64,000 bases of DNA from Parcubacteria group bacterium GW2011_GWA2_42_14. Its GTDB lineage: Bacteria; Patescibacteriota; Minisyncoccia; Sungbacterales; GWA2-42-14. This document shows positions 83-16,484 of this stretch, piece after piece. A program made the position numbers and the translations under genes. The first letter of the stretch is position 1; each line of letters opens with the position of its first letter. The stretch lies in assembly GCA_000998135.1 (NCBI GenBank), contig LCCV01000005.1:157-64156 (forward strand). Direction: 5' to 3'. The notes below the pieces were generated by a model. It was not told the origin of the DNA and ran no database searches. It saw nothing but the letters and a program-made list of their open reading frames with translations.

Positions 83-811
83 TCAATCAGTAATTTCTTC
101 TGTAATATTTTTATATTTATTAATTAATTTTTTAATTTCGCTTACTGATAAACTAGGAATTATTTTATATCCACCTTCATAATTTAACCTTCTCATCAAG
201 AAACGTATACGTGCTTCCTTATGAGATTCAAACAAATGGGGATTTTCTATAACATATTCAAGTAAGGCACGCACAAAATTATTACTGCGTCCTAACATAC
301 CGAAAATAGTTCTTGTGTAATCTTGCATAGAAAAAAGTTCCTTTGTCAGCTCAAACGGATAATCGCTTTCAGAATTATATGTCATATACGCACCCCACCA
401 CAACATTGCTATCCCGTGGCGCATATATGACGAGCTTGTCTGAGTTTTCACAAACCAGTGATTAACGATATATGCCGCACGTTTTTCCTCATGCTGATCA
501 GCTACTGGCCAACGCTTTGCCATATACTCCATGAAGGGCACATGAGCCAACCAAGCCCACAAGCGCTGATCAGAGGCCATCGTACGATCTATGTCCCTCA
601 TTGACTCATAAAGAATTTGAGCATTTTCAAACTCTTCTTTATCGGCAGCGAGTTTAGGAAAAACGTCTATTTCAATAAGCGTATCCTTGGTGTCGGAGTT
701 GGAATAATTCGGCGCCCTACCCTCAACATAACCGTTGATAATCTCCTTACTCTGAAGTCGTTGACCCAGCTGATCAAGAAATGTTGTTGTAAATACTTTT
801 ATTCTTTCCAT
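83..811 (-). CDS. Hypothetical protein, 242 aa; last gene of the GHKL-ATPase four-gene operon
   Basis: Intact ORF separated by 3 nt from the upstream ORF that ends at 815. Hydrophobic, Trp-rich helical core (WAWLAHVPFMEYMAKRW, GIAMLWWGAY). No catalytic motif recognised. Confidence 0.5.
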   Translation of the reverse strand: MERIKVFTTTFLDQLGQRLQSKEIINGYVEGRAPNYSNSDTKDTLIEIDVFPKLAADKEEFENAQILYESMRDIDRTMASDQRLWAWLAHVPFMEYMAKRWPVADQHEEKRAAYIVNHWFVKTQTSSSYMRHGIAMLWWGAYMTYNSESDYPFELTKELFSMQDYTRTIFGMLGRSNNFVRALLEYVIENPHLFESHKEARIRFLMRRLNYEGGYKIIPSLSVSEIKKLINKYKNITEEITD

Positions 812-814
812 ACA

Positions 815-1657
815 CTATTCTGCTGAATCAATTATTTCTTTTAATCCGGTTAACATACGACTGACCGGTCCTTTTAATATTTCTTGTGCGATTTCAGAAA
901 TATTTTCTTTTTCCCACTCTAATTTTGCTTTTTCGGTACGCTCTTTTAATATATTAAACCACATTAAATGTCCGAATGATTCCGGTATTTCAAAAGCGTT
1001 ATAAAGAGCAGTGGTAATTGCCGGAAATGCCACACTGGACTGCAAAATCGAATTAATCTTTTCTGTTCTTGAACCCGCGAAAATCGCGAGTTTATCAAAA
1101 TCAAGACTTGGCAACCTTACCACTATTTTGTCTTGATGAGGATCAATGCTCATCGAGCCAAAAAGTCTCGGGTCGCGGACAACTTCAAGAATATCGGAAA
1201 CCGATTTTGCTCCTGCATATTTTTTCCTGGCATCGAATTTTTCAGACTCTGCTTCCGCCAAAATATCACCCGGCAAAAGAGAAACATTTGCTTCCACCCC
1301 TTCATAGTCCGGATGCGCCGTACCATTTATATAGCTGGCGATGTCGGTCGCGGCGAGCACCAGATAATCAAGCTGTACGATACTTCGAAGTTCCGATGCG
1401 GGCACGAAAACTTCAAACTGATTATTTATAAAAAGGTAACATTTTCGAAAGTGAGTCGCTTTACACATAATCTGTAAAACATAATTAGCCTGTCCGTTAT
1501 TGATTAGATCCTGAATAGATTTGTTGTCTAAATTAAAATTACCTCGGATTTTTATTTCATCCTTACCTCTAACAATTTCGACTATCGGAGCAAATGTTCC
1601 CGATACAGCATCACCATCGCCAAGTACCGGCCAAGGATATCGTGAAATTATATTCAT
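815..1657 (-). CDS. Hypothetical protein, 280 aa; third gene of the GHKL-ATPase operon
   Basis: ORF overlaps the upstream GHKL gene by 4 nt (1654-1657), implying translational coupling. No recognisable domain. Confidence 0.5.
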   Translation of the reverse strand: MNIISRYPWPVLGDGDAVSGTFAPIVEIVRGKDEIKIRGNFNLDNKSIQDLINNGQANYVLQIMCKATHFRKCYLFINNQFEVFVPASELRSIVQLDYLVLAATDIASYINGTAHPDYEGVEANVSLLPGDILAEAESEKFDARKKYAGAKSVSDILEVVRDPRLFGSMSIDPHQDKIVVRLPSLDFDKLAIFAGSRTEKINSILQSSVAFPAITTALYNAFEIPESFGHLMWFNILKERTEKAKLEWEKENISEIAQEILKGPVSRMLTGLKEIIDSAE

Positions 1658-3564
1658 GGTTGTATTTGTAAATTAGGATTTATTGCAATGACCCATGGGT
1701 CTTTTAATTCTATGGAGAGATATGCTTTTCCTGAGTCATCCAAAGAAAAATCGCAATATCCGGTATCTATCTTAATTATTTTAGTCCCACGTTCACCGAC
1801 AGCATCCGCAAGACCAAGTAATTCGCCCTCTCCCTCTTCCGCACGACCAAATAACTTCATTCGTACGACAGGATTCCCCTGAATTTTATCAGCGTGTATT
1901 AAAAAACGATACATTCGACCACTTGCAGTTGTACCCCCCACGACATAGCGCACAACCGCGTTTTCTAATTCTTTAGGCCTAATAACCGTACCTTCCGTAT
2001 CAGGTATAGTGGGAATTTCAACGGACTCATGCGGTCCTGAGGGTACCAGAGTAGGAACATCATCGGGAATTATCGGTCGCACAGGAACATAACGCTTCAC
2101 TCTAATTGGTTTTATGGTGTGAGTAGGCACAATGTTATCGTCCGGATCTTCCGAACCTATTTCAATTCCCGTTTCTTCCTCGACCGGTTCTTTCACGGGA
2201 TTGCTAGCAACTCCCGTCTGAGGTAAAATTCCGTCTGATTTCGGTACTCCAATATAGTCTGTAAGACCCGGGATAGTTGTTGATTGCTGAATTGGTGAAT
2301 ATAAAAGACCGCTTAATCCCTCGGCAATGAAAAGCTCAAGTTCCTGAGAAGCAGTTTTTCCATCCTCAACATAATGTCCGTGTTCATCTTTCCAATTGTG
2401 CCAATCCCATTCATTATGAGCGGGGTTTTCCAGCTTCCGGAGTATCTCACTTCCTTTTTTATTCCTACACTCAAAAACAGCAGCATACTTTGCTAAATGA
2501 AACGCCCTCCCCCTGAAATCAACAATCATTCCGGTATTTCTAATAAGCGCTGTCTTATTAGGGTATGGTAGTTCATCTGAGGTTCTACCGTAAAAAGAAA
2601 TTTCTCTAAGCATATCGGGGGTTTCCGATAATTTTTTTTCAGAATTAGTGTATGTATCAAAAAAATGTAGAGGATTATAAGGTTTATGAGATCTCTTTTC
2701 GTCTACTGCAAAAAATTCACTCATACGTTCACGAAGATTAGCGGCATCAAATTCTTTATCATCTACTCTTACCGTAAGTATTCCCCAATGTATTGCGGGC
2801 CAAAACCACCCCAAAACCGCCCGGCAGATTTCCTCTTTCCAATCAGTGCTTCCCTGATAATTAACAACCCAAATATCAGTTCCCTTTTCTTGCCTCTTTT
2901 TAAATATTTCCGGAATTTCTTTTTTATTCTTGATAGGTAACTGCCTTGGAAGACCGTATGTACCATTACCTTGCATTAATTCACCGTCCTGGTTAAAGGA
3001 TAGCAGCCGCAATTTTCCGGCAAACTTAATCCCTTCATCGGTAACCGTAGAAACGAATATAGTTCTAAAAAGCGAATTTGCAAAAAAAGCTCCCTTCCCT
3101 AATCCAAAAGCACCACCTGCCCAGGCTTCACCGGCATTAAATCCAACACCACGCATAAACATAAACCAACGCCCATCTTCAGTATCGCCGGTTAAACCGC
3201 AAGTATTGTAATCCGAAATCCGTAATAACGAAACGGAAATACCGCTTTTTAAAATATCTGCCTGAGCACGATAATGCTTTGCCGCATGAAGTACTCCTCT
3301 TTTCTCGGCATAATCGGCACATTTTCTGAATATTTTTTCTAACCGTTCCGGATTGGGTAATTCCCTTATAGGAAAATTTTCTAGATCAAATTCTGCTCTG
3401 ACCGGATTTTTACCGGGCAATTTTGCGTCAATAATATTTTGGATAGCTTCCCTTATTAGACTATCGGTTAAATTTTCTTCATATGCAAAATTTGCCGCAA
3501 CCGGGTCATTAAACCCCGCGACGTCTCCACCATCTGTTTTGCCAAAATGATAATCGGTTGTCAT
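1654..3564 (-). CDS. GHKL/Bergerat-fold ATPase (HATPase_c; MORC/MutL/Hsp90-like), 636 aa
   Basis: N-box EAIQNIIDA, G1 box DYNTCGLTGD and G2 box GAFGLGKGAFF sit in the correct order for a Bergerat ATP-binding fold. The C-terminal roughly 350 aa has no recognised domain. Confidence 0.75.
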   Translation of the reverse strand: MTTDYHFGKTDGGDVAGFNDPVAANFAYEENLTDSLIREAIQNIIDAKLPGKNPVRAEFDLENFPIRELPNPERLEKIFRKCADYAEKRGVLHAAKHYRAQADILKSGISVSLLRISDYNTCGLTGDTEDGRWFMFMRGVGFNAGEAWAGGAFGLGKGAFFANSLFRTIFVSTVTDEGIKFAGKLRLLSFNQDGELMQGNGTYGLPRQLPIKNKKEIPEIFKKRQEKGTDIWVVNYQGSTDWKEEICRAVLGWFWPAIHWGILTVRVDDKEFDAANLRERMSEFFAVDEKRSHKPYNPLHFFDTYTNSEKKLSETPDMLREISFYGRTSDELPYPNKTALIRNTGMIVDFRGRAFHLAKYAAVFECRNKKGSEILRKLENPAHNEWDWHNWKDEHGHYVEDGKTASQELELFIAEGLSGLLYSPIQQSTTIPGLTDYIGVPKSDGILPQTGVASNPVKEPVEEETGIEIGSEDPDDNIVPTHTIKPIRVKRYVPVRPIIPDDVPTLVPSGPHESVEIPTIPDTEGTVIRPKELENAVVRYVVGGTTASGRMYRFLIHADKIQGNPVVRMKLFGRAEEGEGELLGLADAVGERGTKIIKIDTGYCDFSLDDSGKAYLSIELKDPWVIAINPNLQIQP

Positions 3565-3567
3565 GGT

Positions 3568-3786
3568 TTATAATTTAAATTCTTTATCCCTTGGTAAGTG
3601 AAATTTCCCTCTGGCCTCTTTTACTGCCTGATCAATCTCTAAAAATATTCGTCGAACTTGATCAGGTGAATATGAATAATTTCCCTTATTCCCACAGTTA
3701 CCGAGAATGCGCATATCTCGTAAAACTGCCCTGGTTCGGCGCTCAGCAACCCTTTTAAACCTATCATTTTTTGATTCATTTTCCAT
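3568..3786 (-). CDS. Small basic protein, 72 aa; first gene of the GHKL operon, possible DNA-binding regulator
   Basis: Ends 3 nt before the GHKL start. Arg/Lys-rich (RFKRVAERRTRAVLRDMRILGN). Confidence 0.4.
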   Translation of the reverse strand: MENESKNDRFKRVAERRTRAVLRDMRILGNCGNKGNYSYSPDQVRRIFLEIDQAVKEARGKFHLPRDKEFKL

Positions 3787-3991
3787 ATTAATAAGTATTT
3801 ATTGAGCTTTTTAAGTATTTTAGTTATAGAGTTCAGATATCTAGTACTATATGTCCCCCATTATACTCGTAGTGGATTTTTTGTCAATAGCTACAAGAAT
3901 ATAAGAATGATAGTAAAAAAACAAATACTTTTTCGTTAACGAACCAACAGACGAACACAAAAACCGCCGATACCGGCAATTTTTTTGTTTA

Positions 3992-4429
3992 TTAATTGAG
4001 GGCCTTTTTAATTTTCTTAATAACGTCTTCCGGATACTTTTTTATCCCGTGTTCCCAAACAATAAGAGGTTTCCATCCGAAGTGCTTAATTTTTCGCAAA
4101 ACGGCTATATCCCTCTTTTTATTCCCGTTTATTTTCTCTCGCCAAAATTTTACATTGGTTTTAGGAATTGATCTATGTAGCTTACATCCGTGCCAAAAAC
4201 ACCCATGAACAAAAATCACAACCCGCTGCTTCGGAAAAATAAAATCGGGACGAACATTGAATATTTTTTGATGACGCCGCCAATGAGAAATCCCTTCTTT
4301 GCGAAAAAATCTTACGAGATTTAATTCGGTTGTTACATTACCGCTGCTATGTATAGCCGCCATATTCCGTGAACGTTGTTTGATATTTATTCGATCAACC
4401 ATGAATAGTTTTGATAATATTTTTTGCAA
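3992..4429 (-). CDS. vsr: Very-short-patch-repair endonuclease Vsr
   Basis: RSRNMAAI, RPDFIF and FVHGCFWHGC motifs match Vsr (E. coli has RSKNMRAI and FTHGCFWHHH). Overlaps the upstream dcm by 35 nt, as in classic dcm-vsr pairs. Confidence 0.9.
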   Translation of the reverse strand: MQKILSKLFMVDRINIKQRSRNMAAIHSSGNVTTELNLVRFFRKEGISHWRRHQKIFNVRPDFIFPKQRVVIFVHGCFWHGCKLHRSIPKTNVKFWREKINGNKKRDIAVLRKIKHFGWKPLIVWEHGIKKYPEDVIKKIKKALN

Positions 4430-5408
4430 TTGCCTCGATTACGGACACCGCAACACTGTTACCAAGCTGTTTCATTTTCTGAGAATAAGATAGATTGCCG
4501 GGAAAAATAAAATTTGACGGAAAACCCATCATTGTTTTTGCTTCTTCAACCGTTAATACATGCGGTTTATTGTTAACCAAATACGTATCCCAATTTCGTC
4601 TGTCCCTAAACCAAGACCCATCAGGATTCTTTCTGAAAGGCGATTTTCTTCCCCCGACGCGTATCGTTGACCCTATTATAGCAGGCCATCTTTTTCCAAA
4701 AATCTGTCTTAGGGTTACACCCCGCGGAGTCGTCGAGGATGGAAACCTAAAACTATTGGCCTTTCTTAAATCCTTTCTAAATGCGACAAGATAAAATCTT
4801 GGTCGATGAGTGGGCAGTCCGAAAGCGCTTGCCCTCAAAATTTCCCAATTAAAACCCCTTTCAGGCCTTACATCGTAACCGGCACCATCCAACTTATCCA
4901 GGATTACAACGAGCGTTTTATTGTCGTTGTGACTGACGATATTTCTTACGTTTTCCAAAAAAATAACCTTTGGTTTTCGCGCCCTAACTATTCTTTCTAT
5001 ATCATTAAACATTGTCCCTCTTACATCATCAAACCCCTTTTGTTTTCCAACCTGACTAAACGGCTGACATGGAAAACCGGCGCAAAGAATATCGAAGTTC
5101 GGAATAATTTCCCCAATATTTCTTTTCCAAATATATTTAGGTTCGTTTGTATCGGTGCGAGTTATTTGCTTAATATCCTTCCAAAAGAACGATTCTCTCT
5201 CGTCATCTATAAATAAGGTCGGGTCGACTTTTTTGAAATAATTTTTATAAGTTTCTTTGGCACATTTATTAAATTCATTCACAAAAACACACTTTCCGCC
5301 AAGCCTATGAAGAGCTAAATGAAAACCGCCTATTCCGGCAAATAAGTCGATAAAAGTGAATTTTGATTTTTTAGCACCCATTTCTCTATGTATGTTTAAC
5401 CTTAACAT
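4395..5408 (-). CDS. dcm: DNA cytosine-5 methyltransferase (Dcm-type m5C MTase)
   Basis: Motif I FIDLFAGIGGF, motif IV GFPCQPFS and motif VI ENV are present. Confidence 0.9.
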   Translation of the reverse strand: MLRLNIHREMGAKKSKFTFIDLFAGIGGFHLALHRLGGKCVFVNEFNKCAKETYKNYFKKVDPTLFIDDERESFFWKDIKQITRTDTNEPKYIWKRNIGEIIPNFDILCAGFPCQPFSQVGKQKGFDDVRGTMFNDIERIVRARKPKVIFLENVRNIVSHNDNKTLVVILDKLDGAGYDVRPERGFNWEILRASAFGLPTHRPRFYLVAFRKDLRKANSFRFPSSTTPRGVTLRQIFGKRWPAIIGSTIRVGGRKSPFRKNPDGSWFRDRRNWDTYLVNNKPHVLTVEEAKTMMGFPSNFIFPGNLSYSQKMKQLGNSVAVSVIEAIAKNIIKTIHG

Positions 5409-5496: not shown

Positions 5497-6645
5497 CTAT
5501 TTAATGGCCTGCTTAAACCCAAGAATCGCCGATTTAAAGAGTTCAATAGATTTTTTATCCGGAAAGGCCTCTTGAAACGTCATGTTCTTTCCGGGGAAAT
5601 CGCTGATACGAGACCCTCTCTTCCCTTCTCTAATTTCCTTGTCTGTACGTGCATACCATTTTTTTATTGCCGGCAGCTTCAATAATTTTTCACGCAATAA
5701 TTGGGATAATCGTTCGCCATCTTTTCCTGGAATTTCGTTTGTAATCCTCCAAAAACCTATTTTAAAACGGCCGTCGCTTTTCAAACTAACAATGCGTAAA
5801 AACCCGCTTTTTGCTTTGGGGTATTCGAGTCTAAGATAAGTGCGACCCAAATCGTGACCCGTTCCGTAACCCGGCTCCGCCAGTTCCGTGCGGCCGAATT
5901 CATAAAGATCAAGGATTGCATTCGAAAGTTCCTTGTCCTTAACCTCTTTTATTTTCTGGCGGAAAAAATCGTCATTTTGTTTATTGGGCCGGTATCCGCC
6001 CGCGATGTCTTTTTTTACCTCAGCACCGTATAGCTTGGGAATCAATATTTCATAGTCCTCGTGCTTATAATATTCAAATTCAACTGCAAAAAGATCAAAA
6101 CGGCTGTTTTCATTGATGAAAAGAATAAGGTTTTTCAATTGGTCATCAACTTTATCGAGAAGCACCACGAACCGATAATTTCCCTTGCTTAAGTTTTGCC
6201 GAACGTTTTCCAAAAGCAATGCGGCATCTTCGTCCTCAATACCGAAGAATTCTTTAACCAGTTGAACGGTATTCTGCTTAAATTTTTCCTGAACTTTTGC
6301 ATCAAGTTCCCGCATGAATTCGGTAAAATCCCCGTATGAGCGCCATAACGACGCACCATAATCAAGAACTTGTGCCACAATAGAACGCTTGTCCGAATTC
6401 CGGTAAAGCTTTGTTTCAATTAAGTAAACTTCACCATCTTTATCAATACCGAGGGCGTCGATTGGTCCGTGTTCTGTATAAAATTCTCTTGCAAGAATAA
6501 GAAGCTGGATATCCTTTTTAATATCGTAAACAGGGATGCTTTCAGGATTGTCATAAATATATTTCTGCAAATTTCCTTCTCGCTCAAATGTTGACTCGGG
6601 TACTGGTTTGGCATTTTTGCCGTTTTTTGAGATGATGATTGTCAT
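5497..6645 (-). CDS. PD-(D/E)xK-family nuclease, 382 aa; putative restriction endonuclease partner of the m5C MTase
   Basis: IDALGIDKDGEVYLIETKL contains a D...E-x-K catalytic core. Sits immediately upstream of dcm-vsr on the same strand. Confidence 0.55.
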   Translation of the reverse strand: MTIIISKNGKNAKPVPESTFEREGNLQKYIYDNPESIPVYDIKKDIQLLILAREFYTEHGPIDALGIDKDGEVYLIETKLYRNSDKRSIVAQVLDYGASLWRSYGDFTEFMRELDAKVQEKFKQNTVQLVKEFFGIEDEDAALLLENVRQNLSKGNYRFVVLLDKVDDQLKNLILFINENSRFDLFAVEFEYYKHEDYEILIPKLYGAEVKKDIAGGYRPNKQNDDFFRQKIKEVKDKELSNAILDLYEFGRTELAEPGYGTGHDLGRTYLRLEYPKAKSGFLRIVSLKSDGRFKIGFWRITNEIPGKDGERLSQLLREKLLKLPAIKKWYARTDKEIREGKRGSRISDFPGKNMTFQEAFPDKKSIELFKSAILGFKQAIK

Positions 6646-7295
6646 AGGTTTTTATGACGACGGGAAACACAAAGCCCCGCGCCAGCTAGGTCTTGCGACC
6701 CCATACCGGTTTCCCGATATGGCCCATCAAAGAGTTGCTGAACGCGGGGTTCAGTATCTTCATCGGGTCTTTATGCCATGCCCGGCGGTATGAACCGAAG
6801 GGTTTAGGACAATTAAATTGTTATCGTTATAACGACTATATCAAAAATGCCCGTTTCAATCAATTTTCTGTCCATTTCATAGCATAAATACTTGCTTTTG
6901 CGAAGGATCGAGTTATCAACAGCGGCTATTTGCAAACTCTTGATTTATTCAAAATAATTTGCTATTATGAAAATAATTGAATAGAAATCTTAGCGGCTGT
7001 CTCTAGTCTATAAAGATTATCAGATAGCTGTGTCGGCTAGACCGCCTAAGGTTTTATCAGCAATGCTATTTTGTATTGCTGTTGAAACTTTGGGCGGTTT
7101 TTATTTTTCGCCCCTTCGCCGCCACGGTCAACGGCGAAATGTAACCAAAGGAGAATATTGCTTATGAAATAAAACGCGTGCCATGAGTACGCAAAACGAA
7201 AATACTAAAAAACTCAGATATTAATAACGGAAACGGCTTATCCTAGAAAGGTTCAGTATAGAAACTTTCTTTGGTGAGCCGTTCCCTAAATTAAG

Positions 7296-8642
7296 ATGTT
7301 AGAAATTGATAGTGAAAAACAGCTTAAAATTACTTATGTTCCGGTGGATTCCCTCCAGCCTTCCGAGTACAATCCGCGCTCATGGAGCAAAGATGCCGCC
7401 GGGCAATTGAAAGAGAGTATAACCAGATATGGAATGGTGGACCCCATTTTGGTAAACTCCGCACCCGAAAGGAACGGCGTACTTATCGGAGGGCATTTCC
7501 GATGGGCAATGGCAAAGGAACTTGGGATAACAGAAGTACCAGTTGTCTATCTTAATATTCCTGACCTTGAAAAAGAGAAGGAACTTAATTTAAGGCTGAA
7601 CCGCAATCAAGGCGAATGGAATCTTGAACTTCTCGCTGAATTTGATGAAAAATTGCTCGCCGATATAGGTTTTAGTTCCGAAGAGATTGATGAAATATTT
7701 GGAATTGAGGAGAATCCGGAAATGTTTGATCTGGAAAAGGAATTAAAAAAACTGTCGATTGATAAAGTTGACGTGCAGAAAGGCGACGTCTATAAAATCG
7801 GAGAACATCGCGTCATGTGCGGAGATTCCACGATTGAAACGGATATGCTCAAACTCATGGCTGGAGAAAAAGCCGATATGTGCTTCACAGACCCGCCATA
7901 TTTACTCTCATATTTGACCGGAAAGAAGCGACATGGAAAAGCAACTGAAGGATTCGGGTTAAAACGCGACCGCCGGTATCTAGAAACAGATGTTTTGCCG
8001 GATAACTTCACGGAACTCTGGATGACAAATATTGCCAAGATTCAAAAACCGGATTTTTCAATCATCGTGTTTGAGAATCCTAAGAATTTGCGGACTATCT
8101 GGAACGAACTTGAAAAGTATTGGCGCTGGCGCAATACAATCATCTGGCACTTACCAAATCGCGTCTCCGGTTTCTCAGCAAAATACAAGTTCTTTAACAA
8201 ACACGATATTGCCCTCGTCGGCACCGACGGGAATCCATCATTAAATTTGGAACCGGAATCGGATGAATTATTTCAAAACGAGTATGAGAACGCATTATAC
8301 GCAACTTCCGGAAAACCGCACTGGGAGGGCTATGAGAAAGGAAAAAAGATCTGCCCTACGGATTTTATTGAGCACATTGCGGCTGATGAAAAATCCAGCG
8401 GCCAAGGAATAATATTCGGCACGAAGCCGATTGAACTCCTTATCCCATACATCAAGGTTCTCACGAAACGCGGAGATCTTATAGTAGAACCTTTCGGCGG
8501 ATCGGGATCTATGCTGGTTGCGGCAGAAAAGTTGAAACGACGGTGCTTTCTGATGGAAAAAAGTCCGATCTACACAGCCGTCATATTAAACCGAGTTGAA
8601 AAAATTATTGGCATAAAAGGAGAAAAAATCAATGAGGGATAA
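7296..8642 (+). CDS. ParB-like nuclease domain fused to an N6-adenine/N4-cytosine DNA methyltransferase (beta-class)
   Basis: N-terminal ParB/Srx signature (YNPRSW ... GGHFRWAMAKELG). Motif IV DPPY (CFTDPPYLL) precedes motif I (VEPFGGSGS) at the C-terminus. Confidence 0.85.
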   Translation: MLEIDSEKQLKITYVPVDSLQPSEYNPRSWSKDAAGQLKESITRYGMVDPILVNSAPERNGVLIGGHFRWAMAKELGITEVPVVYLNIPDLEKEKELNLRLNRNQGEWNLELLAEFDEKLLADIGFSSEEIDEIFGIEENPEMFDLEKELKKLSIDKVDVQKGDVYKIGEHRVMCGDSTIETDMLKLMAGEKADMCFTDPPYLLSYLTGKKRHGKATEGFGLKRDRRYLETDVLPDNFTELWMTNIAKIQKPDFSIIVFENPKNLRTIWNELEKYWRWRNTIIWHLPNRVSGFSAKYKFFNKHDIALVGTDGNPSLNLEPESDELFQNEYENALYATSGKPHWEGYEKGKKICPTDFIEHIAADEKSSGQGIIFGTKPIELLIPYIKVLTKRGDLIVEPFGGSGSMLVAAEKLKRRCFLMEKSPIYTAVILNRVEKIIGIKGEKINEG

Positions 8643-9201
8643 AATAGAGGAAAAGCTAAAAATACTTGAAACGCTGAAAACAACGCCGGTGATTAGTGTG
8701 GCGTGCGCTAAGGCGGGCTTGGCGCGCGCCACAATCTATCGCTGGCTTAACGACGATATTGACTTCGAAAAACAAGTTCAACAGGCCATGAGATCCGGCG
8801 CTAAGAATATTAACGACTTGGCGTATGCAAAACTGATCCAGAAAATCAACGAAGGCAGTCTGGGAGCCACTACTTTTTACCTCTCACACCGGCATCCTTT
8901 ATTCAAAAAGAAAGAAAAATTTAAAGTGGAAGTGACACAGAAAAATTCTCCGATCTATGACATTCCCGAAAGTGCGTTTAACGAAGTTTTAATCAGTAAA
9001 CTCCCGAAAAAACTCAGAAAGCAAGTAGTAAGAAAAGCAATAAGGATACACGAGATAGTGCGACAAGCCATCGAGAAAGCGCGCAAGGAGCGCCCGTACT
9101 TGGGACCCAAAAACCCGTCATCAAAGTATTGTCTACAAGATACGCTGCCGTGGGGGTTAATTCTTAAGAGCGTTCTTGAAGAAGAAAAGGGGAAGAAATA
9201 G
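8632..9201 (+). CDS. HTH DNA-binding protein (terminase-small-subunit-like or transposase-HTH-like)
   Basis: PVISVACAKAGLARATIYRWLNDD reads as a helix-turn-helix. The start overlaps the MTase stop by 11 nt. Confidence 0.5.
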   Translation: MRDKIEEKLKILETLKTTPVISVACAKAGLARATIYRWLNDDIDFEKQVQQAMRSGAKNINDLAYAKLIQKINEGSLGATTFYLSHRHPLFKKKEKFKVEVTQKNSPIYDIPESAFNEVLISKLPKKLRKQVVRKAIRIHEIVRQAIEKARKERPYLGPKNPSSKYCLQDTLPWGLILKSVLEEEKGKK

Positions 9202-9303
9202 TTATCAACTGCTTGGTTTGAGGGGGTCTGGACTCACAGGAGGGGTTGCGTCATCAATGTCCTTGTCGAAAGGTTATTAAATAACTAAGTAAAACAAGGG
9301 CTT

Positions 9304-10647
9304 ATGAAACAATCAACAACAACCCCTCCTGACGCCTTGGGGAAAATGACGGCAGAAATAACTGTCATGGCGCCGCAGATGCGCTACTGTCTTTATGCGC
9401 GGAAGAGTACCGCCGAGGAGGACCGGCAGGCTCTTTCCATAGAATCGCAGGTAAAAGAAATGCTTGCGATGGCGGAACGCGAACGACTTCACGTGGTCGA
9501 AGTGAAGCGCGAATCGCACTCATCTAAAGAAGCTGGCCAGCGGCCAATCTTCAATCAGATGATCGCCGAGATCAAAGAGGAAAAGTACAACGGGGTGCTC
9601 GCGTGGGCACCAGACCGGCTTTCGAGAAATGCAGGAGACCTGGGTTCGGTGGTCGATCTGATGGACCAGAAGTTACTGGTTGAGATCAGAACTTACGGCC
9701 AGCGATTTACAAATAACCCGAACGAGAAATTTCTTTTGATGATTCTCGGCTCGCAGGCAAAATTGGAAAACGATCAAAAGGGCGTGAACGTAAAACGCGG
9801 GCTAAGAGCCAGATGCGAGATGGGTCTATGGCCTGCTCCGGCACCAACCGGATACCTCAACGACAAGAGCCGGGACAAAAAATGCCATATCATTATAGAT
9901 CCAAAACGCGGACCGGTTATAAAGCAAATGTATGAAAAAGTTGCGAATGAAAGTTGGAGCGGTAAACGGCTGTATCACTGGCTAAAAGATACAAAATTTA
10001 CATCCGTCTACGGCAAACCACTAACATTGAGTAATGTATATTTGATATTAAAAAATACCTTATATTATGGAGTGTTCGAATATCCGAAAAAAAGCGGAAA
10101 CTTGTACACCGGCATCCATCAGCCGCTTATAACAAAAGAGATTTTTGAAAAAGTGCAAACGCAGATCAAGAGAAGCAAGATCTTAAGCCCTTATGGTGGC
10201 AAGGAATTCGCCTTCACGCGGCTTATCTCATGCGGAAATTGCGGAACGACGCTGGGCGCGGATGAGAAATTGAAGAAACTCAAAAACGGGCACATAAATA
10301 GACATGTGTATTATAGCTGTACGAAACGATGGTCAAGAGATTGCAAAAGCGGATTCATCAACGAGCCCGAATTAATTGGACAGCTTATGGCCATCATCGA
10401 CACGGTTAAACTCGACAAAACCGGCATTAGGGAAAAACTTGATGGCGAGATCAGTCGCTATCGAAAATTCCAATCTGGTGTTCTCGGCATCAAAGAGATA
10501 CACGACCAAAAATCCAAGGACTTGGACATCCGGAATTATGCGAAATACATCTTCAAAGAAGGAGCAATCTATGAAAAACGCGAACTGCTATCGTGCTTGA
10601 GAAGCAAACTGATATTCAAAGATAAAAAACTTTCGCTCGAAGCATAA
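9304..10647 (+). CDS. Large serine recombinase (resolvase/invertase N-domain, recombinase domain, zinc ribbon)
   Basis: YARKSTAEEDRQALSIESQ matches the catalytic motif of serine recombinases. A CGNCGTT ... YYSC zinc-ribbon-like region lies in the C-terminal half. Confidence 0.85.
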   Translation: MKQSTTTPPDALGKMTAEITVMAPQMRYCLYARKSTAEEDRQALSIESQVKEMLAMAERERLHVVEVKRESHSSKEAGQRPIFNQMIAEIKEEKYNGVLAWAPDRLSRNAGDLGSVVDLMDQKLLVEIRTYGQRFTNNPNEKFLLMILGSQAKLENDQKGVNVKRGLRARCEMGLWPAPAPTGYLNDKSRDKKCHIIIDPKRGPVIKQMYEKVANESWSGKRLYHWLKDTKFTSVYGKPLTLSNVYLILKNTLYYGVFEYPKKSGNLYTGIHQPLITKEIFEKVQTQIKRSKILSPYGGKEFAFTRLISCGNCGTTLGADEKLKKLKNGHINRHVYYSCTKRWSRDCKSGFINEPELIGQLMAIIDTVKLDKTGIREKLDGEISRYRKFQSGVLGIKEIHDQKSKDLDIRNYAKYIFKEGAIYEKRELLSCLRSKLIFKDKKLSLEA

Positions 10648-10694: not shown

Positions 10695-13600
10695 CTACTT
10701 TTTATGAGGGGGCAAAACATTAGTATAAGTTTTTCCAACCAATTTGCCATCTACTTTCATCCTAAACGCACCACCCATTTCCAATCTCCCAAGGAAACCT
10801 TCTCCACTACCCATAGTTCCTAGTAAGAGTTTTTCTCCAATAACCGCCCAAATTATCTCGTAGCCATTCTTTTTTAGAAACTCAATCAAGGGTTTCTTTT
10901 TGATAATCAACGCTCCCGAACCTGCATCAGCCACTGAAGGGTCTTGTGCCACCACCTCACCTTTTTTATTGATGAATTTACCAGACTCTTTGCTCTGGTG
11001 AATATTCATCCCCTTAATTAACTCCTTTGCTGGTATGTGAATGGCTAACCCCTCTTCTAGTGAGCAATCAAAGCCGCTTCCTTCCCAATGGTATTCTTCT
11101 GTAGTCTTAATTACATTAAATGGCGTAATCTTTCGTTCCTTATCCTCAACTTTTATCCAACGCTTTTTATTGGAGACATTGTACTCGTTTTGGTATGCAA
11201 TAGAGTTTGGAATTTCTCTTAGAAAGAGACTACGCAACTCCAGCGGGTCAGGCATCCATCTACCCATAAAATCTTGTTTCTTTGCCCAGGCGAACATCCT
11301 ATTAACTTCTTTTTTCTTAACAATGTAACTACGCAATATATACCAAACATCACGCCTGATTTTATCGAATTTCTCCTCACCAGGAACGGGAGGCTGTTCC
11401 CACCGTACATAACCGTCCAAAAGCAACCATCCGCCTTTCGATTTAATTTCTATTAGATTTTTTTGAGTTGGTAAATCATTTTTAACTTTTGTCCATTGAG
11501 TATGGTTAAGTGAGGGACGCCAATGCTTATAAACAGCACTAATCCACCAGGGTTTTTTTGCCGATGAATCAATCGGGGTCTTATGCAAAAGACAAGATGG
11601 GTCAATGTCCCGCTCACACATTTGCCAAGTCCCCTGGTAGGGTTCAAAGGTGTCTCTCCAAGCACCTCTATAGACAAAGTTATCAGCAATTCTTCCCAAT
11701 ACCTCGTGGAAAGCTATCCATTGATACTTTTTACCAATACGCTCGCTTTTATGAGCATCTCTACCCATTTCTCTAACTGTTGAATCATATTTGGCAAATA
11801 GCTTCGGTCTCCAACCTAATTGGACGATTCTTTGAAATATGAGTCGTTGAATCTCTGCATCATTCAAGTCATCACTACCTTTAGGATTTTCACGATAAGG
11901 GAGAACACCTTTCTTGTATAGTTTTTGTTGCACATCGCTTAAAGTCTCAATAAAAACTTTCTCAAGATTTTTAACAAAAGTTTCCGCTTCTTTCAGCTGC
12001 TCTTTCATGAACTTATTTTCTGGTAATTGGTCTCCTTCTCTTCTTGGAAAATCTGTCATCCTTAATTGCCAGTCAGTGGATTGACGCATACTTTCAATTT
12101 TTTTCCACCTCTTTTTTTCTATTCGATTTAGACTGGTATTAAATTCCGCATCTATTTCCTTAATGGTTTTCTTTCTTTTTCCATTTTTTGATAATCTCAA
12201 GTTGCACCAATGGTTTAGAGTTGAACCCACAACATAATTCCCGAAGTCAGCAATACCTCCTTCATTGTTATACATCAATGAATACCAGATAGCGCCGTAG
12301 TCTCCATTTTTCCTTTTGCGACCACTTCCTTTTGGATACTTTTTCTTTAAATCGGCTAGAGTTGGCACTACTGTTGGAAATGAACTCCCGTATGGTGGTC
12401 TGATTCTTCGTATATCAATCTTATTTTTTAGTGTAGCATCCTGGGAAATCGCAAGCTCCATAATGCCGCGCGCATAGTCTCGTAATAAAATATGAGTGGG
12501 CGGCTTTCTGTCTTTGAAAATATTATTGTATGTGTAAAGTGCAAGCGTAGAAACATCCTCTCTTTTGTTTTCAGGCTGCAAAACACAACCGTAAGCTGCT
12601 GCATAAAGTCGTTCTTGTATGTAGGGGTCATCAACTCCTTTAAAGTCCTCTAACACCTTCAAAAGCACGGGGATTCTCCCGTTCAGCATTGATACCAACG
12701 CTTTCGTTGCTCTATCCCTCAAGAATCTATTTGAACTCGCTAAAAACCAAGCCAAAGTAACGCCAGCTAATCTCAACGAATCATTTTGTATCGTGCTTTT
12801 GTCTCCTCCGTCCCACGACCAAGTAAGAAGACGATTTATTGCGCCCTCATCACCATATCGGCTATTTATAAAAGGCAACCAAAACGCATCGCGTTGCGGC
12901 ATTTTCTTTTTTGCCAAATGCCTATGAAGTAACTTTGCATTTAACGGGTGGCTGGGTATGGCAGAAACAGTGATTAAGGTCTCCAAAATTTTTTCGTTGC
13001 CACCGTAATAAGGCAAGATGTATTTATTCAAATAATTTAAAATCCGTCTCTGGTTGATGTATTTTGTTTTCCCTTTTTTTAGCGATAAATCTCTCCAAAT
13101 GAGGCTTTCTAAAAAACTATCTTTCGCAATCTCTTGATAACGAAACTTATTTGGAGCCACATAAACTAATTCTCTACCGCGCAATCTCTCTGGCACTTGG
13201 ATGGATAAAGCCTCAATAAGTCCGCGGTTCCATTGTTCGCCGATAATATTGCCCAACCTTGTTCCTTTTTTTAACGACTGTTTTGGAAGAGTTGTGTTTA
13301 AATGTTTTGTTAAAAGATTCCTTACAATTAGATGGTCGCTGAATTTCTGATATGGAAATCTATAATCAAAGCCGATAATCTTATACTTTTTATAACGAGG
13401 AACTTTAGTTATTAACCAATATTTCTCTAAAAACCACAACACCTTTTTTCCTTTAGATGGGAACTGTTTTGCGGCAATTGATACCGCTTGCTTTTCTGGT
13501 ATCCTGTCAGTTCCATTTTCGCCCATATAAAGTGCGAGTTCTTTTATAGTTCCGTTCCAAATTCTTCTAACGCTTTCTCCTGATTCTCCTAATTTTTTTA

Positions 13601-14837
13601 GAACTGCATCGCCTTGAGTAATAACATATTTCTCGAAGATGTGAGTAAATCCTCGATGCCCCTTTATTGGCTCTGGTGATTTGGCAGATGCCTCACAAAA
13701 AATTTTCAAAAATAGAGGTATACGAAATTCTGGAAATAGGATAGGTACTTCGGGAAGGGGCAGTTTATATTCTGTAAAAAATTTTGTTAAAGCCTCCCAT
13801 TCGTGAGTGGCAAAACCCTCGTGTTCGACTCTTACATAACTTTTTAGTACAGATAGCGGGAGTTCACTCTGCTCAAAACCAGAACGAATACTCAAAATTA
13901 CACCAAGATTTTTGTACCTACTAATTAAATTAAATTGTTCCCAATGAACACCGAATACCTGGCTTTCATTTACGGCATCAACCACAATAATTGCCCTCGT
14001 GCGTTTTGCACCAGCGTAATCATTTAGAGCTTGGATGAATGTTTTATTTGATGTATTTATTGCTAACAGATTTTTAGCCGTACCCCACGGATTTTTAGAG
14101 TTATTAAATTCTTCACCAAGAAATATGAAAGTGGGTAACCCGTGGCTTATCCTGTATTTTGATAGGTCGCATAGAAAATGAGTCTTTCCTGAACCAGCTA
14201 TGCCGTTTAAAAGAACGCGGGGATTATTGGCAGCCAAAGCTGTATTACTTTTTGAGAAATCTATTAAGGAACTTAAAACACTGCCAATTTTGTATAAGTG
14301 ATGTTTTTCGTTTCTAAACTTTTCGTCCTCAATATATGTTATTCTCTCTCCCTTTTTCGGCTTGTTAATCGGATTTTCTTGTTCTTTTTTCTTTCTATTC
14401 TCCTCTTCGTTTTCTCGTAATAAGTGTGTACATTTATAGGCGGCTTCTTTTGCATTGTTGCTTATCGAATATATTTTCTTAAAATCTATTTTCGCTACGC
14501 CGCTATGCGGAATTTTCAATAAAAAGTTCACCACTTCTAGAAAGTGGCGTTTTACTTTTTCAAATTCTTTTGGAGCTACCTTGCTCACTTCTTCGTCTTT
14601 GATGCTCCTAAGATTTTTGATTATCTCATTAGCTGGGCTTTTTAATTCCTCATAAAACTTCGCTGTTCTTCCGAGACCATCGAATACTGAAGCAATGCTT
14701 ACCTCGACATTGAGTTTTGGAGTATATCTAGCTCCAGCAAGAGAGATAGCAACAGAAAGTCGTTTCTCTTGTGTGCTTTTATAGAGTTTTTTTTGTGAGA
14801 TTTTTTTCATAGTTTTATTATACAGCGCGCTCGACAA
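10695..14837 (-). CDS. Large (1380 aa) P-loop NTPase, STAND/NACHT-like; candidate defence NTPase
   Basis: Walker A GIAGSGKTH at about aa 210 and Walker B AIIVVDAVNES. The roughly 850-aa C-terminal region has no recognised motif. Confidence 0.55.
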   Translation of the reverse strand: MSSALYNKTMKKISQKKLYKSTQEKRLSVAISLAGARYTPKLNVEVSIASVFDGLGRTAKFYEELKSPANEIIKNLRSIKDEEVSKVAPKEFEKVKRHFLEVVNFLLKIPHSGVAKIDFKKIYSISNNAKEAAYKCTHLLRENEEENRKKKEQENPINKPKKGERITYIEDEKFRNEKHHLYKIGSVLSSLIDFSKSNTALAANNPRVLLNGIAGSGKTHFLCDLSKYRISHGLPTFIFLGEEFNNSKNPWGTAKNLLAINTSNKTFIQALNDYAGAKRTRAIIVVDAVNESQVFGVHWEQFNLISRYKNLGVILSIRSGFEQSELPLSVLKSYVRVEHEGFATHEWEALTKFFTEYKLPLPEVPILFPEFRIPLFLKIFCEASAKSPEPIKGHRGFTHIFEKYVITQGDAVLKKLGESGESVRRIWNGTIKELALYMGENGTDRIPEKQAVSIAAKQFPSKGKKVLWFLEKYWLITKVPRYKKYKIIGFDYRFPYQKFSDHLIVRNLLTKHLNTTLPKQSLKKGTRLGNIIGEQWNRGLIEALSIQVPERLRGRELVYVAPNKFRYQEIAKDSFLESLIWRDLSLKKGKTKYINQRRILNYLNKYILPYYGGNEKILETLITVSAIPSHPLNAKLLHRHLAKKKMPQRDAFWLPFINSRYGDEGAINRLLTWSWDGGDKSTIQNDSLRLAGVTLAWFLASSNRFLRDRATKALVSMLNGRIPVLLKVLEDFKGVDDPYIQERLYAAAYGCVLQPENKREDVSTLALYTYNNIFKDRKPPTHILLRDYARGIMELAISQDATLKNKIDIRRIRPPYGSSFPTVVPTLADLKKKYPKGSGRKRKNGDYGAIWYSLMYNNEGGIADFGNYVVGSTLNHWCNLRLSKNGKRKKTIKEIDAEFNTSLNRIEKKRWKKIESMRQSTDWQLRMTDFPRREGDQLPENKFMKEQLKEAETFVKNLEKVFIETLSDVQQKLYKKGVLPYRENPKGSDDLNDAEIQRLIFQRIVQLGWRPKLFAKYDSTVREMGRDAHKSERIGKKYQWIAFHEVLGRIADNFVYRGAWRDTFEPYQGTWQMCERDIDPSCLLHKTPIDSSAKKPWWISAVYKHWRPSLNHTQWTKVKNDLPTQKNLIEIKSKGGWLLLDGYVRWEQPPVPGEEKFDKIRRDVWYILRSYIVKKKEVNRMFAWAKKQDFMGRWMPDPLELRSLFLREIPNSIAYQNEYNVSNKKRWIKVEDKERKITPFNVIKTTEEYHWEGSGFDCSLEEGLAIHIPAKELIKGMNIHQSKESGKFINKKGEVVAQDPSVADAGSGALIIKKKPLIEFLKKNGYEIIWAVIGEKLLLGTMGSGEGFLGRLEMGGAFRMKVDGKLVGKTYTNVLPPHKK

Positions 14838-14898
14838 ATATCCAATAAACCTTATTCACAAAAACGAAAAGCCGCTGATTTCTCAGCGGACTTTTCGT

Positions 14899-14954
14899 TC
14901 TTGAATACGGCGCTCCCTCCTTCGCTAAAGCTACGGCGGGCACAGCAGCCGGTA
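14899..14954. repeat. Direct repeat copy 1 (TCTTGAATACGGCGCTCC ... GGGCACAGCAGCCGGTA) after a hairpin
   Basis: 18/18 and 17/17 identical blocks shared with 16204-16257. The interior is partly similar. Confidence 0.8.
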
Positions 14955-15093
14955 CTGCAGCTTTATCGGGGTTATTCACTAAATACTCAATTTTTAAAGG
15001 GTTACTTTTTGACCGATCTTTTTGATTTGACTTTTAAATCGCAATCTCATATAATCTAATATATCAACTATATAAGATTCGATAAGCTAAATT

Positions 15094-16146
15094 ATGAACC
15101 GGCTTAATACACGTATCAAAAAACTCCCCTACTCTATACTTGATCTTATCAATAAGATCGATGAACTGAAAGGCCAATGGGTGGGAGGTGCTAAATTAAA
15201 TCCACAAGCGCTCGGGCGGCTCAAGCATTCAACCTTGATTACATCAACGGGTGCTTCGACACGCATCGAGGGCGCACAGCTTTCCGATGAGGATGTGGAA
15301 AAACTGATGCGAGGACTTTCCATGCAAAAATTCGCCGACCGCGACAAGCAGGAGGCGAAAGGATATTACGAGTTGCTTGAAAATGTTTTTGCCGCATGGC
15401 AGAAGATACCGTTTTCTGAAAGTACCATCAAGCATCTGCACCGTGAACTGCTGAAATACGTAAAAAAAGATGATACCCATCGCGGAGAATATAAAAAGAT
15501 GGAAAACAAGGTAGTAATGCTCGATGAGGCCGGTAAACCGACTGCAACCCTTTTTGAGACAACGCCGACATATCTTACGCCAAAGGAAATGTTGGAACTT
15601 AGCGAATGGACCCGCGATGCACTGGCTATACGCGAATTCCATCCTCTGCTTGTCATCGGAAATTTTATCGTAGAGTTTCTGAACATCCACCCATTTCAGG
15701 ATGGCAACGGGCGGCTTTCCCGAATTCTGACAAATCTTCTCTTGCTCCAGCACGGATACACATATATGCCGTATGTCTCTCATGAAAAACTTATTGAAGA
15801 TAATAAGGCAGACTACTATGTAGTACTACGCAGAAGCCAGAAAACGTTTAAGACCGATTCCGAAAATGTGTCTCCCTGGATGGAGTTCTTCTTGAACATT
15901 CTTTTGTCACAGTCAAAACTCGCGATTGAGCTGCTTTCGCAAGAAAACATAGAACGCCTTCTTTCGCCGAAACAGCTTGCTGTATGGCAATACGTTGAAG
16001 GCGTTATTGAGGCAACACCGGGAAAAATCTCTAAAGCCACAAAGGTCGCCCGCCCAACGGTTTCCCAAGCGCTTGACGCACTCCTGCGCCTTAAAAAAGT
16101 GGAACGGATCGGGCAGGGGCGGACAACGAGATATAGAAAGATCTGA
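15094..16146 (+). CDS. fic: Fic/Doc-family protein (AMPylase-type) with C-terminal winged HTH
   Basis: Canonical Fic motif HPFQDGNGRLSR. Confidence 0.9.
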   Translation: MNRLNTRIKKLPYSILDLINKIDELKGQWVGGAKLNPQALGRLKHSTLITSTGASTRIEGAQLSDEDVEKLMRGLSMQKFADRDKQEAKGYYELLENVFAAWQKIPFSESTIKHLHRELLKYVKKDDTHRGEYKKMENKVVMLDEAGKPTATLFETTPTYLTPKEMLELSEWTRDALAIREFHPLLVIGNFIVEFLNIHPFQDGNGRLSRILTNLLLLQHGYTYMPYVSHEKLIEDNKADYYVVLRRSQKTFKTDSENVSPWMEFFLNILLSQSKLAIELLSQENIERLLSPKQLAVWQYVEGVIEATPGKISKATKVARPTVSQALDALLRLKKVERIGQGRTTRYRKI

Positions 16147-16177
16147 AGTCTTTCCCGGCAGATGCGGAAACAAAAAT

Positions 16178-16202
16178 TCACCCGGAAATGGGTGAATTTT
16201 TG
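16178..16202 (+). terminator. Rho-independent terminator of fic
   Basis: TCACCCggaaatGGGTGA followed by ATTTTT. Confidence 0.6.
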
Positions 16203-16203
16203 C

Positions 16204-16257
16204 TCTTGAATACGGCGCTCCTCCGCACAAGGCTGCGGACGGGCACAGCAGCCGGTA
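16204..16257. repeat. Direct repeat copy 2
   Basis: See copy 1. Lies immediately after the fic terminator. Confidence 0.8.
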
Positions 16258-16408
16258 TGACGTGGACTGTAACGAGTTTTCTTTGTAACTCCCCTGAGGC
16301 CCGAAACACTAGCTTTTTTAATGAGCGGTTCGAATCCGTGACGGGTCGAACTTTGACTCATTCAAAAAAGTGACGTGTTATGGGTCTCGGTAGGGGGTCG
16401 CAAGGACA

Positions 16409-16479
16409 CTGGGGGACAGGGATTCGAACCCCGATACCTGCCTCCAAAGGGCAGTGTCCTACCGTTAGACGATCCCCCA
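16409..16479 (-). tRNA. tRNA-Gln (anticodon TTG)
   Basis: The reverse complement reads TGGGGGATCGTCTAACGGTAGGACACTGCCCTTTGGAGGCAGGTATCGGGGTTCGAATCCCTGTCCCCCAG. It has a 7-bp acceptor stem, the anticodon loop CTTTGGA and the T-loop GTTCGAATC. CCA is not encoded. Confidence 0.8.
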
Positions 16480-16484
16480 ATAAC

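Follow-up and report, generated by a model that had tools for sequence, protein, structure and literature searches.

Introduction

The SCC (staphylococcal cassette chromosome) islands of staphylococci are driven by large serine recombinases (LSRs), the Ccr proteins, and integrate into the 3' end of a single conserved gene, rlmH, where they accumulate in tandem, carry anti-phage defences and include recombinase-less cassettes that are mobilised in trans. LSR integrases join short attachment (att) sites, attP and attB, through a 2-bp crossover and leave no long direct repeats at the ends of the inserted DNA; their excision needs a separate recombination directionality factor, and such factors share no sequence signature. 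Most tycheposons of Prochlorococcus (910 of 937) rely on a tyrosine recombinase, a minority have an LSR, and many carry replication genes (bioRxiv 10.1101/2020.12.28.424599). Here we analyse 64,000 nucleotides of a Patescibacteria genome (Candidate Phyla Radiation, CPR; Parcubacteria-type; assembly GCA_000998135.1, contig LCCV01000005.1, positions 157 to 64,156 of the forward strand), a stretch that we call the window, in which three adjacent genes at 7296-10647 encode a ParB-methyltransferase fusion, a homologue of the small terminase subunit (TerS) and an LSR. We think it likely that they are what remains of the backbone of a mobile island, from a family that has not been described before and is common in ultra-small CPR bacteria. 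Like the SCC islands, this one lies at the 3' end of a gene and carries defence genes; unlike them, it sits at a tRNA gene and has a terminase and methyltransferase backbone.

Results

Three genes of the window belong to a conserved backbone

The backbone of the window comprises the following features, in order:

7296-8642, plus strand: fusion of a ParB_N domain to an N6/N4 DNA methyltransferase, 448 amino acids (aa), the first backbone gene (Pfam, PHROG, motifs)
8632-9201, plus strand: TerS homologue, 189 aa, with a non-homologous C-terminal tail (PHROG, Pfam, synteny)
9201-9301, plus strand: recombinase leader, also the place from which the large terminase subunit (TerL) is missing (alignment of 67 loci, invariant columns)
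9304-10647, plus strand: intact LSR, 447 aa, the putative integrase for the tRNA-Gln 3' end (Pfam, motifs)

The fusion protein combines ParB_N (E 3.6e-11) with N6_N4_Mtase (E 2e-18) in Pfam and falls into phrog_498, DNA methyltransferase, in PHROGs (E 5e-81), with the motif DPPY at residue 199 and FGGSG at 400. Three Pfam domains make up the LSR, namely Resolvase (PF00239, E 1.6e-20), Recombinase (PF07508, E 5.5e-14) and Zn_ribbon_recom (PF13408, E 3.9e-6), and its PHROG is the integrase family phrog_95 (E 1e-62), with a secondary match to phrog_125, DNA invertase. Its motifs are YARKST at 31-36 (the nucleophilic serine in its Y-x-R-x-S context), SQ at 48 and CGNC at 310; the catalytic YARKST and the zinc-ribbon cysteines C310, C313, C339 and C347 are all invariant across 26 homologues, and the nearest solved structure, the SPbeta LSR (PDB 9dxh, E 3e-11), is distant. 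The first-pass annotation of this DNA, which was made from its letters alone, had described three plus-strand open reading frames (ORFs) with these domains and motifs, and all of them are present at the exact coordinates.

That annotation had also likened the 189-aa helix-turn-helix (HTH) protein to a small terminase subunit, a call borne out by PHROG homology and by synteny. Pfam places HTH_Tnp_1_2 above cutoff and Sf6_terminase slightly under it, and four PHROG small-terminase families match with E about 1e-7 (4102, 24579 and 1482 among them). The ~500-aa protein that follows it in 66 relatives is TerL (phrog_38, E 2e-76; Walker A, Walker B and the nuclease acidic residues invariant), so that homology and the position before TerL both mark the HTH protein as a predicted small terminase.

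Recombinase relatives give more than 8000 protein matches in databases, the best 120 of which are 59-97% identical and come nearly all from CPR metagenome-assembled genomes (MAGs). Identity across classes within the CPR is 57-71%, a scan of one genome per species found an LSR relative in at least 558 species genomes, and the backbone also occurs on about 67 viral contigs; the identical recombinase is encoded on contigs from several groundwater samples and in GCA_001822305.1. We compared 144 related loci (cited below by L numbers, as are other contigs), of which 80 come from genomes and 64 are IMG/VR contigs, and clustered all their ORFs. All 144 have the LSR, 92 the ParB-methyltransferase, 88 TerS and 78 TerL, on one strand and in a fixed order (ParB-methyltransferase, TerS, TerL, LSR) in which the methyltransferase is always upstream of TerS and is often followed by a second methyltransferase without a ParB domain. 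TerL abuts the LSR leader directly in at least 14 loci, and some MAGs and single contigs hold two modules.

None of the 144 loci has the portal, capsid, tail and lysis genes of a prophage, and no portal or capsid cluster recurs in any of them. The terminases themselves draw the same line: TerLs with at least 46% identity all lie inside the module, whereas the next tier, at 36-40% (L179, L181), belongs to true phages, where portal, protease and major head genes follow TerL. By its gene content, then, the element is phage-derived yet no prophage.

The window copy is reduced. It has no TerL, and the stop codon of TerS (9199-9201) abuts the first box of the recombinase leader (9201-9209). TerL is also missing from 18 other loci, in which TerS tends to be longer (median 171 vs 141 aa, p 0.02). 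The C-terminal tail of the window TerS matched nothing, and a TerL remnant fused to it was looked for and not found.

The three genes had been described as more GC-rich than the flanking DNA, with a recombinase 5' region near 50% GC. The latter figure is 51.3% over 9304-9900, and the contrast with the flanks is real, though modest when set against the whole genome and most marked in the recombinase. Overall GC at 7296-10647 is 44.1%, compared with 40.9% in the window as a whole, and ranks at the 92nd percentile of stretches of that size; the 48-52 kb region is richer still. At third codon positions (GC3) the methyltransferase, TerS and LSR reach 0.45, 0.50 and 0.52 (z +1.1, +2.0 and +2.6 against 42 chromosomal genes), the cargo genes on either side 0.31-0.35 (z -1 to -1.8), and SoFic, a cargo gene near the tRNA, is high again (z +1.9). 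Composition is therefore not uniform, and the island is a compositional mosaic.

The island ends at the 3' end of a tRNA gene

Downstream of the LSR and its cargo lies a tRNA gene:

16408-16480, minus strand: tRNA-Gln(UUG), whose 3' end is the island border and the putative attachment target (ARAGORN, Rfam)

Of the 140 recombinase copies, 67 are followed by a tRNA gene as far as the available flank reaches, and in 67 of 67 the nearest downstream one is on the opposite strand with its 3' end towards the LSR (20 of them within 200 nt); upstream of the LSR we found only four tRNAs. The downstream tRNAs are Gln (27), Ser (21), Arg (8) and a few others including Glu, Trp and Asp. For 47 of 56 LSRs the nearest neighbour has the same target tRNA, where about 22 would be expected (permutation p <= 5e-4).

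Comparison with relatives places the border to the base. On L250, a contig of the same species, the sequence matches the window at 100% identity over 18515 to 16409, where the latter is the base that follows the tRNA discriminator, and is unrelated beyond it; the presence or absence of the 1-16.4 kb block, which the first-pass annotation had proposed to compare, thus reveals an island with its border exactly at the tRNA-Gln 3' end and with alternatives at the same site in the same species. The tRNA-Gln and 1.37 kb of alternative island DNA on that contig (L250:2036-3482) are 99.93% identical over 1447 nt to L262:12901-11455, which comes from a different species (its HAD protein is 57% and its DnaX 48% identical to those of the window). 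Such near-identity between otherwise diverged genomes indicates a very recent transfer between species at the tRNA-Gln site. The L262 contigs also hold a 41-residue remnant of the LSR family, 1.65 kb from the tRNA and pointing at it. Across the same loci the LSRs of different genomes are 57-66% identical, compared with 24-43% for DnaX, which is encoded within 10 kb downstream in nine relatives and in the window. The border, the near-identity of L250 and L262, the LSR remnant and the contrast between LSR and DnaX together show that DNA joined to the tRNA-Gln 3' end has been exchanged between species and is linked to the LSR family.

One end of the element had been expected to lie outside the window, and the left end is indeed beyond position 1. 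There (L252:10812-11009 and eight other contigs) every assembly breaks ~200 nt beyond the window start, in sequence that translates to LFVYHLVCPAKY and looks like the N-terminus of an IS200/IS605-type transposase. A multicopy repeat at this break probably hides the island's left border. On the chromosomal side beside the island, an 806-aa VirD4/TraG-type coupling protein (21496-23916, minus strand) is kept in all same-species contigs.

Repeats beside the tRNA point to successive integrations

Between the large cargo gene Avs2 and the tRNA the window has three further features:

14872-14979, no strand assigned: R1, a terminator hairpin and degenerate tRNA-proximal repeat (alignment, repeat families D2 and D19, terminator call)
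15094-16146, plus strand: SoFic, a Fic-domain defence protein forming a recombinase-less cassette between R1 and R2 (Pfam Fic; PADLOC SoFic, E 4e-42)
16172-16407, no strand assigned: R2, a terminator hairpin, the block CTTGAATACGGCGCT...CAGCCGGTATG and a flank up to the tRNA (alignment with relatives)

In cargo-free relatives a terminator hairpin comes after the LSR stop codon, then a conserved block (CTTGAATACCGCACTCAGCGGGTATGCC) and, past a short flank, tRNA-Gln. The window has this arrangement at 16172-16407, after SoFic and not after the LSR, and has R1 between Avs2 and SoFic. On four contigs of other strains (L242:12204-12352, L243, L247 and L003) R1 runs ~148 nt into a pseudo-tRNA-Gln 3' end, TGTGGCTTTTGGATTCGGACC as compared with TGGGGGACAGGGATTCGAACC in the genuine gene; a deletion in the window strain has reduced these 148 nt to 25 nt at 14955-14979. 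R1 and R2 align with a score of 152 vs 28 +/- 5 for shuffles, and an independent repeat finder recovered both halves, as families D2 and D19. Where the annotation had seen no att sites, there is thus a signature of att type, consisting of the tRNA-Gln 3' end and a degenerate repeat of it.

A degenerate tRNA 3' end with its flank, lying between Avs2 and SoFic, shows on our reading that SoFic arrived by a later, separate integration at the same tRNA site. In the simplest history, an older element (backbone and Avs2) would have occupied the site first, and a SoFic cassette of the same family, without a recombinase of its own, would then have inserted at the tRNA and pushed the old tRNA 3' end aside. 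A promoter-like site precedes SoFic (15027-15055) with a strong score, which is weak evidence because promoter matches overall were not enriched over shuffles.

A sensitive search for pseudo-tRNAs returned a single locus bracketed on both sides. In L019 a degenerate 3' half of tRNA-Glu, with a run of 17 matching bases at its 3' end, is separated from tRNA-Glu by 15.4 kb, and this span holds only cargo, the methyltransferase, TerS, the LSR and more cargo. Distal candidates in L024 and L044 proved to be further tRNA genes, different from the first. No exact duplicated tRNA fragments were present within 10 kb, and no exact repeat of at least 12 nt. In L010:6821-6841 and L068:1857-1870 a short piece of the 5' part of tRNA-Gln is duplicated on the chromosomal side, 70-90 nt past the intact tRNA.

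On the element side, a ~30-nt motif, ATGCTAAGTCAGGTGACCGAGAC, abuts the tRNA 3' end across species and with both Gln and Met targets (for example L012:11300-11369, L013:1730-1797 and L044:11280-11345). The window has a diverged version at 16380-16407, CCCCTACCGAGACCC. This motif has a YNRGAC core in common with the recombinase leader and is a candidate for an element-borne att arm. No att repeats were recognisable at the junctions of a 6.3-kb unit common to L046 and L057. We also considered a frequent 4-nt overlap of convergent stop codons at the end of the LSR gene as a crossover site and rejected it as ordinary genome compaction, of which such short overlaps are a common outcome.

A conserved leader precedes the recombinase, and a LOOT RNA precedes cargo

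In essentially all loci the family leader consists of one or two GTTAYCWAC boxes, an invariant CTRGAC, a fixed 14-nt spacer, an invariant GCGTCAT and a variable hairpin. The window version has a GTTATCAAC box at 9201-9209, CTGGAC at 9228-9233, the 14-nt spacer, GCGTCAT at 9248-9254 and a hairpin at 9259-9301 that ends 3 nt before the LSR ATG; the same GTTATCAAC box stands upstream of the methyltransferase (6912-6920). The alignment of 67 loci gave no RNAalifold consensus fold for the core, with only three invariant pairs and no covariation, and we therefore treat the core as a sequence-specific site and not as a folded RNA. Sequence after GCGTCAT folds slightly better than a coding control (mean z -0.71 vs +0.09, p 1e-4; window z -2.9). 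We infer that the leader is a protein-binding control region, possibly autoregulatory, combined with a translational hairpin. No extra copies of its motif were found at the cargo borders of the window.

A structured RNA lies at the other end of the backbone:

6688-6810, minus strand: LOOT RNA (RF03000), 65.7 bits in Rfam vs a gathering score of 46.4

With a covariance model built in this analysis the same RNA scores 109.6 bits. The gene at 5497-6645 has this RNA as its 5' leader, which diverges from the methyltransferase promoter, a layout that recurs in relatives. LOOT RNAs are present in about 50 of 147 loci (L006:9682-9818 on the minus strand, L025:7998-8130 on the plus strand and L038:1422-1557 on the minus strand, for instance), and in roughly 30 of these 50 a same-strand ORF begins within ~80 nt of the LOOT 3' end. 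These ORFs are very diverse and encode nuclease-like, small zinc-ribbon and membrane proteins. Half of the LOOT RNAs (25 of 50) lie beside the LSR and nine beside the methyltransferase; the pairs of LOOT and gene occupy sites divergent from the LSR and ~150 nt upstream of it, directly after the LSR stop codon, or upstream of the methyltransferase. LOOT is not described in the main text of Weinberg 2017. Another structured RNA, a group I intron match (53.3 bits vs a gathering score of 50), was seen ~6 kb downstream of the module in a Colwellbacteria MAG (L034:17085-17302, minus strand).

Cargo occupies stereotyped slots

Apart from SoFic, the cargo of the window is as follows:

83-3564, minus strand: PDC-M33 C/B/A (PADLOC)
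within the 83-5408 cargo, minus strand: a 72-aa ORF
3992-4429, minus strand: Vsr (Pfam/PADLOC)
4395-5408, minus strand: C5 cytosine methyltransferase, Dcm (Pfam/PADLOC)
5497-6645, minus strand: 382-aa LOOT-led cargo protein (weak PADLOC match to PDC-S11, E 1.6e-15, over the N-terminal 200 aa only)
10695-14837, minus strand: Avs2, a STAND NTPase anti-phage sensor, abutting the LSR stop codon (PADLOC, 1207 bits, E=0)

The 382-aa protein has no Pfam or PHROG match and looks, by eye, like a PD-(D/E)XK nuclease; its homologues come after LOOT in L008, L066 and L087. The Avs2 gene is the only Avs2 homologue among the 144 loci. Avs2 is reported to be triggered by phage terminase (bioRxiv 10.64898/2026.08.25.746987). 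Its presence beside a backbone without its TerL is suggestive of a conflict between element gene and cargo, in a single case; a correlation of Avs-type cargo with TerL loss was considered and set aside, as with Avs2 in the window locus only it has no statistical power.

Recurrent cargo in relatives includes type I, III and IIG restriction-modification, SNF2/PLD helicases, reverse transcriptases and large helicase-nucleases. A heavy-metal cassette (CsoR-like repressor, P-type ATPase and HMA-DsbD) recurs directly after the LSR stop codon in L038:7272-11400, L049, L057 and L074, and cargo, though for the most part anti-phage defence, is therefore not solely so. Three slots are used, one directly after the LSR stop codon, one between the terminase genes and the LSR leader, and one upstream of the methyltransferase. 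Some pairs of loci have a common backbone and different cargo, others a common LSR and downstream cargo with a different upstream backbone, and the similarity of L046 to L057 stops at the LSR stop codon itself.

Discussion

We favour, with good confidence, an integrative island that is driven by its LSR and targeted to tRNA genes. The LSR would be the integrase and would direct insertion of the element to a tRNA 3' end (that of tRNA-Gln in the source lineage), with the 3' end of the LSR gene facing the tRNA. Related elements and recombinase-less cassettes would integrate successively at the same site, and each integration would push older DNA away from the tRNA and leave behind degenerate copies of the tRNA 3' end and flank. 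The phage-derived terminase genes point to a further step, in which the element would excise and have its own DNA packaged in the capsids of a helper phage. Since the terminases are conserved without portal, capsid or tail genes, satellite-like transfer is the most likely route, although we put packaging of this kind forward tentatively, as plausible and somewhat short of probable. The window copy itself, with TerL deleted and an aberrant TerS C-terminus, is probably no longer packageable, and its intact recombinase may still excise or capture DNA. Of the first-pass annotation's central idea, a phage-derived LSR integrative element with defence cargo holds up; the three genes as a mobile unit of their own do not, being only the backbone of one.

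A rival explanation for such a locus would be the remnant of an ordinary temperate phage that integrated at tRNA-Gln through its LSR, lost its structural, lysis and replication genes and was later colonised by defence genes. The methyltransferase, TerS and LSR do all match phage families, module TerLs belong to the same PHROG as those of real phages, and the window copy is visibly decayed, with TerL lost and TerS altered. Independent decay would not, however, converge on one architecture, and the same arrangement free of structural genes is seen in 144 loci and hundreds of species, with TerL and leader directly adjoining in at least 14; the module TerLs form an identity tier of their own, apart from the phage TerLs with a portal gene next door, and the att-bounded 15.4 kb of L019 leave no room for a virion module. 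We accordingly regard a phage remnant as unlikely. A fixed chromosomal hotspot seems to us similarly improbable. In that case the LSR and terminases would be domesticated and vertically inherited near tRNA-Gln and dnaX, with cargo swapped by homologous recombination after natural transformation, which fits the nearness of dnaX in nine relatives and the window, the tight site-less junctions of backbone and cargo and the mosaic similarity between pairs of loci. It does not fit the variety of target tRNAs (Gln, Ser, Arg, Glu, Trp, Asp and others), the presence of two copies in some MAGs and contigs, an LSR far more conserved than DnaX at the same loci, the pseudo-tRNA scars, or a border lying exactly at the tRNA 3' end with alternative content 99.9% identical across species.

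Two more readings concern the recombinase itself. Acting with integron-like logic, the LSR could be a platform that repeatedly captures small recombinase-less cassettes between its own stop codon and the tRNA, and possibly at the leader as well, and so builds a defence array. The SoFic cassette without a recombinase between R1 and R2, the very diverse single-gene cargo right after the LSR stop codon or right upstream of the leader, the LOOT-led single genes, drawn from many families, whose places beside the LSR are stereotyped, and a leader core that behaves as a sequence-specific site and not a folded RNA would all suit such a platform. Yet only one clear repeat-bracketed cassette is seen, no second copy of the leader motif stands at the cargo borders, the SoFic cassette could equally be the residue of a full element minus its backbone, and we know of no serine integrase that works as a cassette-capture platform, so we give this reading a low probability. 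Its more specific form, in which LSR and leader together sit at the tRNA 3' end as an accretion platform for single-gene cassettes that lack a recombinase and are captured in trans, is doubtful too, if slightly less so; were it true, a defence array would result and the orphan LOOT RNA would be the common leader or control element of the cassettes. By far the least probable is a regulatory invertase or resolvase that switches neighbouring defence genes, as might be thought from the label 'DNA invertase Pin-like' on some database homologues, the secondary phrog_125 match and the position of the gene between oppositely oriented cargo genes. Recombinase and zinc-ribbon domains are typical of integrase-type LSRs, no inverted repeats flank the adjacent genes, and switching would leave the universal association with tRNA 3' ends unexplained.

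Several observations weigh against an LSR-driven, satellite-like island and temper our preference for it. We found no circular contigs or excised circular form and no intact attP/attB pair, no candidate for a recombination directionality factor was identified, and the left end of the window's island lies outside the window. The link between LSR clade and target tRNA could partly be host phylogeny. Where backbone meets cargo, gene follows gene closely and no sites are recognisable, and some cargo exchange may therefore proceed by homologous recombination and not by the LSR. Most characterised satellites carry replication genes, whereas none appeared among the recurrent CPR neighbour clusters scanned with Pfam (singletons were only partly scanned). 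A LexA-like S24 repressor, divergent from the operon in some relatives, occurs in only ~10 of them and is absent from the window.

The CPR accounts for a large share of bacterial diversity and has tiny genomes, mostly without CRISPR. How its members acquire and exchange defence genes is poorly understood, and the family described here, with a highly conserved serine integrase directed to tRNAs, a packaging module of phage origin and stereotyped slots for cargo, would offer a concrete vehicle for traffic in defence and metal-resistance genes. It would give a genomic context to the orphan LOOT RNA family, and its compact serine integrases (about 440 aa), with predictable tRNA targets and conserved flanking motifs, may interest genome engineers. 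Full-text literature searches returned no paper that combines Patescibacteria, serine recombinase and terminase, and the one survey of Patescibacteria genomic islands that we consulted mentions neither recombinase, integrase, terminase nor tRNA.

Among known systems, the phage-inducible chromosomal islands (PICI) and capsid-forming PICI satellites are alike in being small integrated elements that have a site-specific integrase at one end and packaging gene(s) of phage origin, lack a complete virion and lysis set and often carry anti-phage cargo. The CPR family matches them in its tRNA-proximal LSR (67 of 67 loci), in the 15.4-kb size of the att-bounded element, in terminase genes without a virion module (TerS in 88 loci, TerL in 78; TerS only in the window) and, in some relatives, in the divergent S24 repressor. 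It differs in that the integrase is an LSR and not a tyrosine recombinase, in having TerS and TerL with no capsid or portal gene, in its constant ParB-methyltransferase, in the lack of a primase or replication module among recurrent neighbours and in its CPR hosts; dependence on a helper would be a further parallel that we infer. Tycheposons, compared here by their published description, likewise target tRNAs and stand in tandem arrays together with partial copies of the tRNA; their cargo is adaptive or defensive, and some of them are PICI-like and have TerS. In the CPR family, by contrast, the LSR is universal, the backbone runs from methyltransferase through TerS to TerL, no replication genes were seen and the host lineage is unrelated.

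The SCC islands (PMC11470126) come close in another way, as LSR islands at a conserved 3' end with tandem insertions, recombinase-less cassettes and defences; their target is rlmH and not a tRNA, they have no terminase and methyltransferase backbone, and the Ccr proteins are only distant relatives. Mobile integrons are further off, for the window recombinase is a serine enzyme and not a tyrosine IntI, and the repeat search found no attC-like repeats. The recombinase of SPbeta (SprA/YokA, PDB 9dxh) is built of the same resolvase catalytic domain, recombinase domain and zinc ribbon, with low sequence similarity, and serves a complete prophage that targets a protein-coding gene; set against it, the CPR LSR family is unusually conserved, has an invariant leader motif of its own and is directed to tRNA 3' ends.

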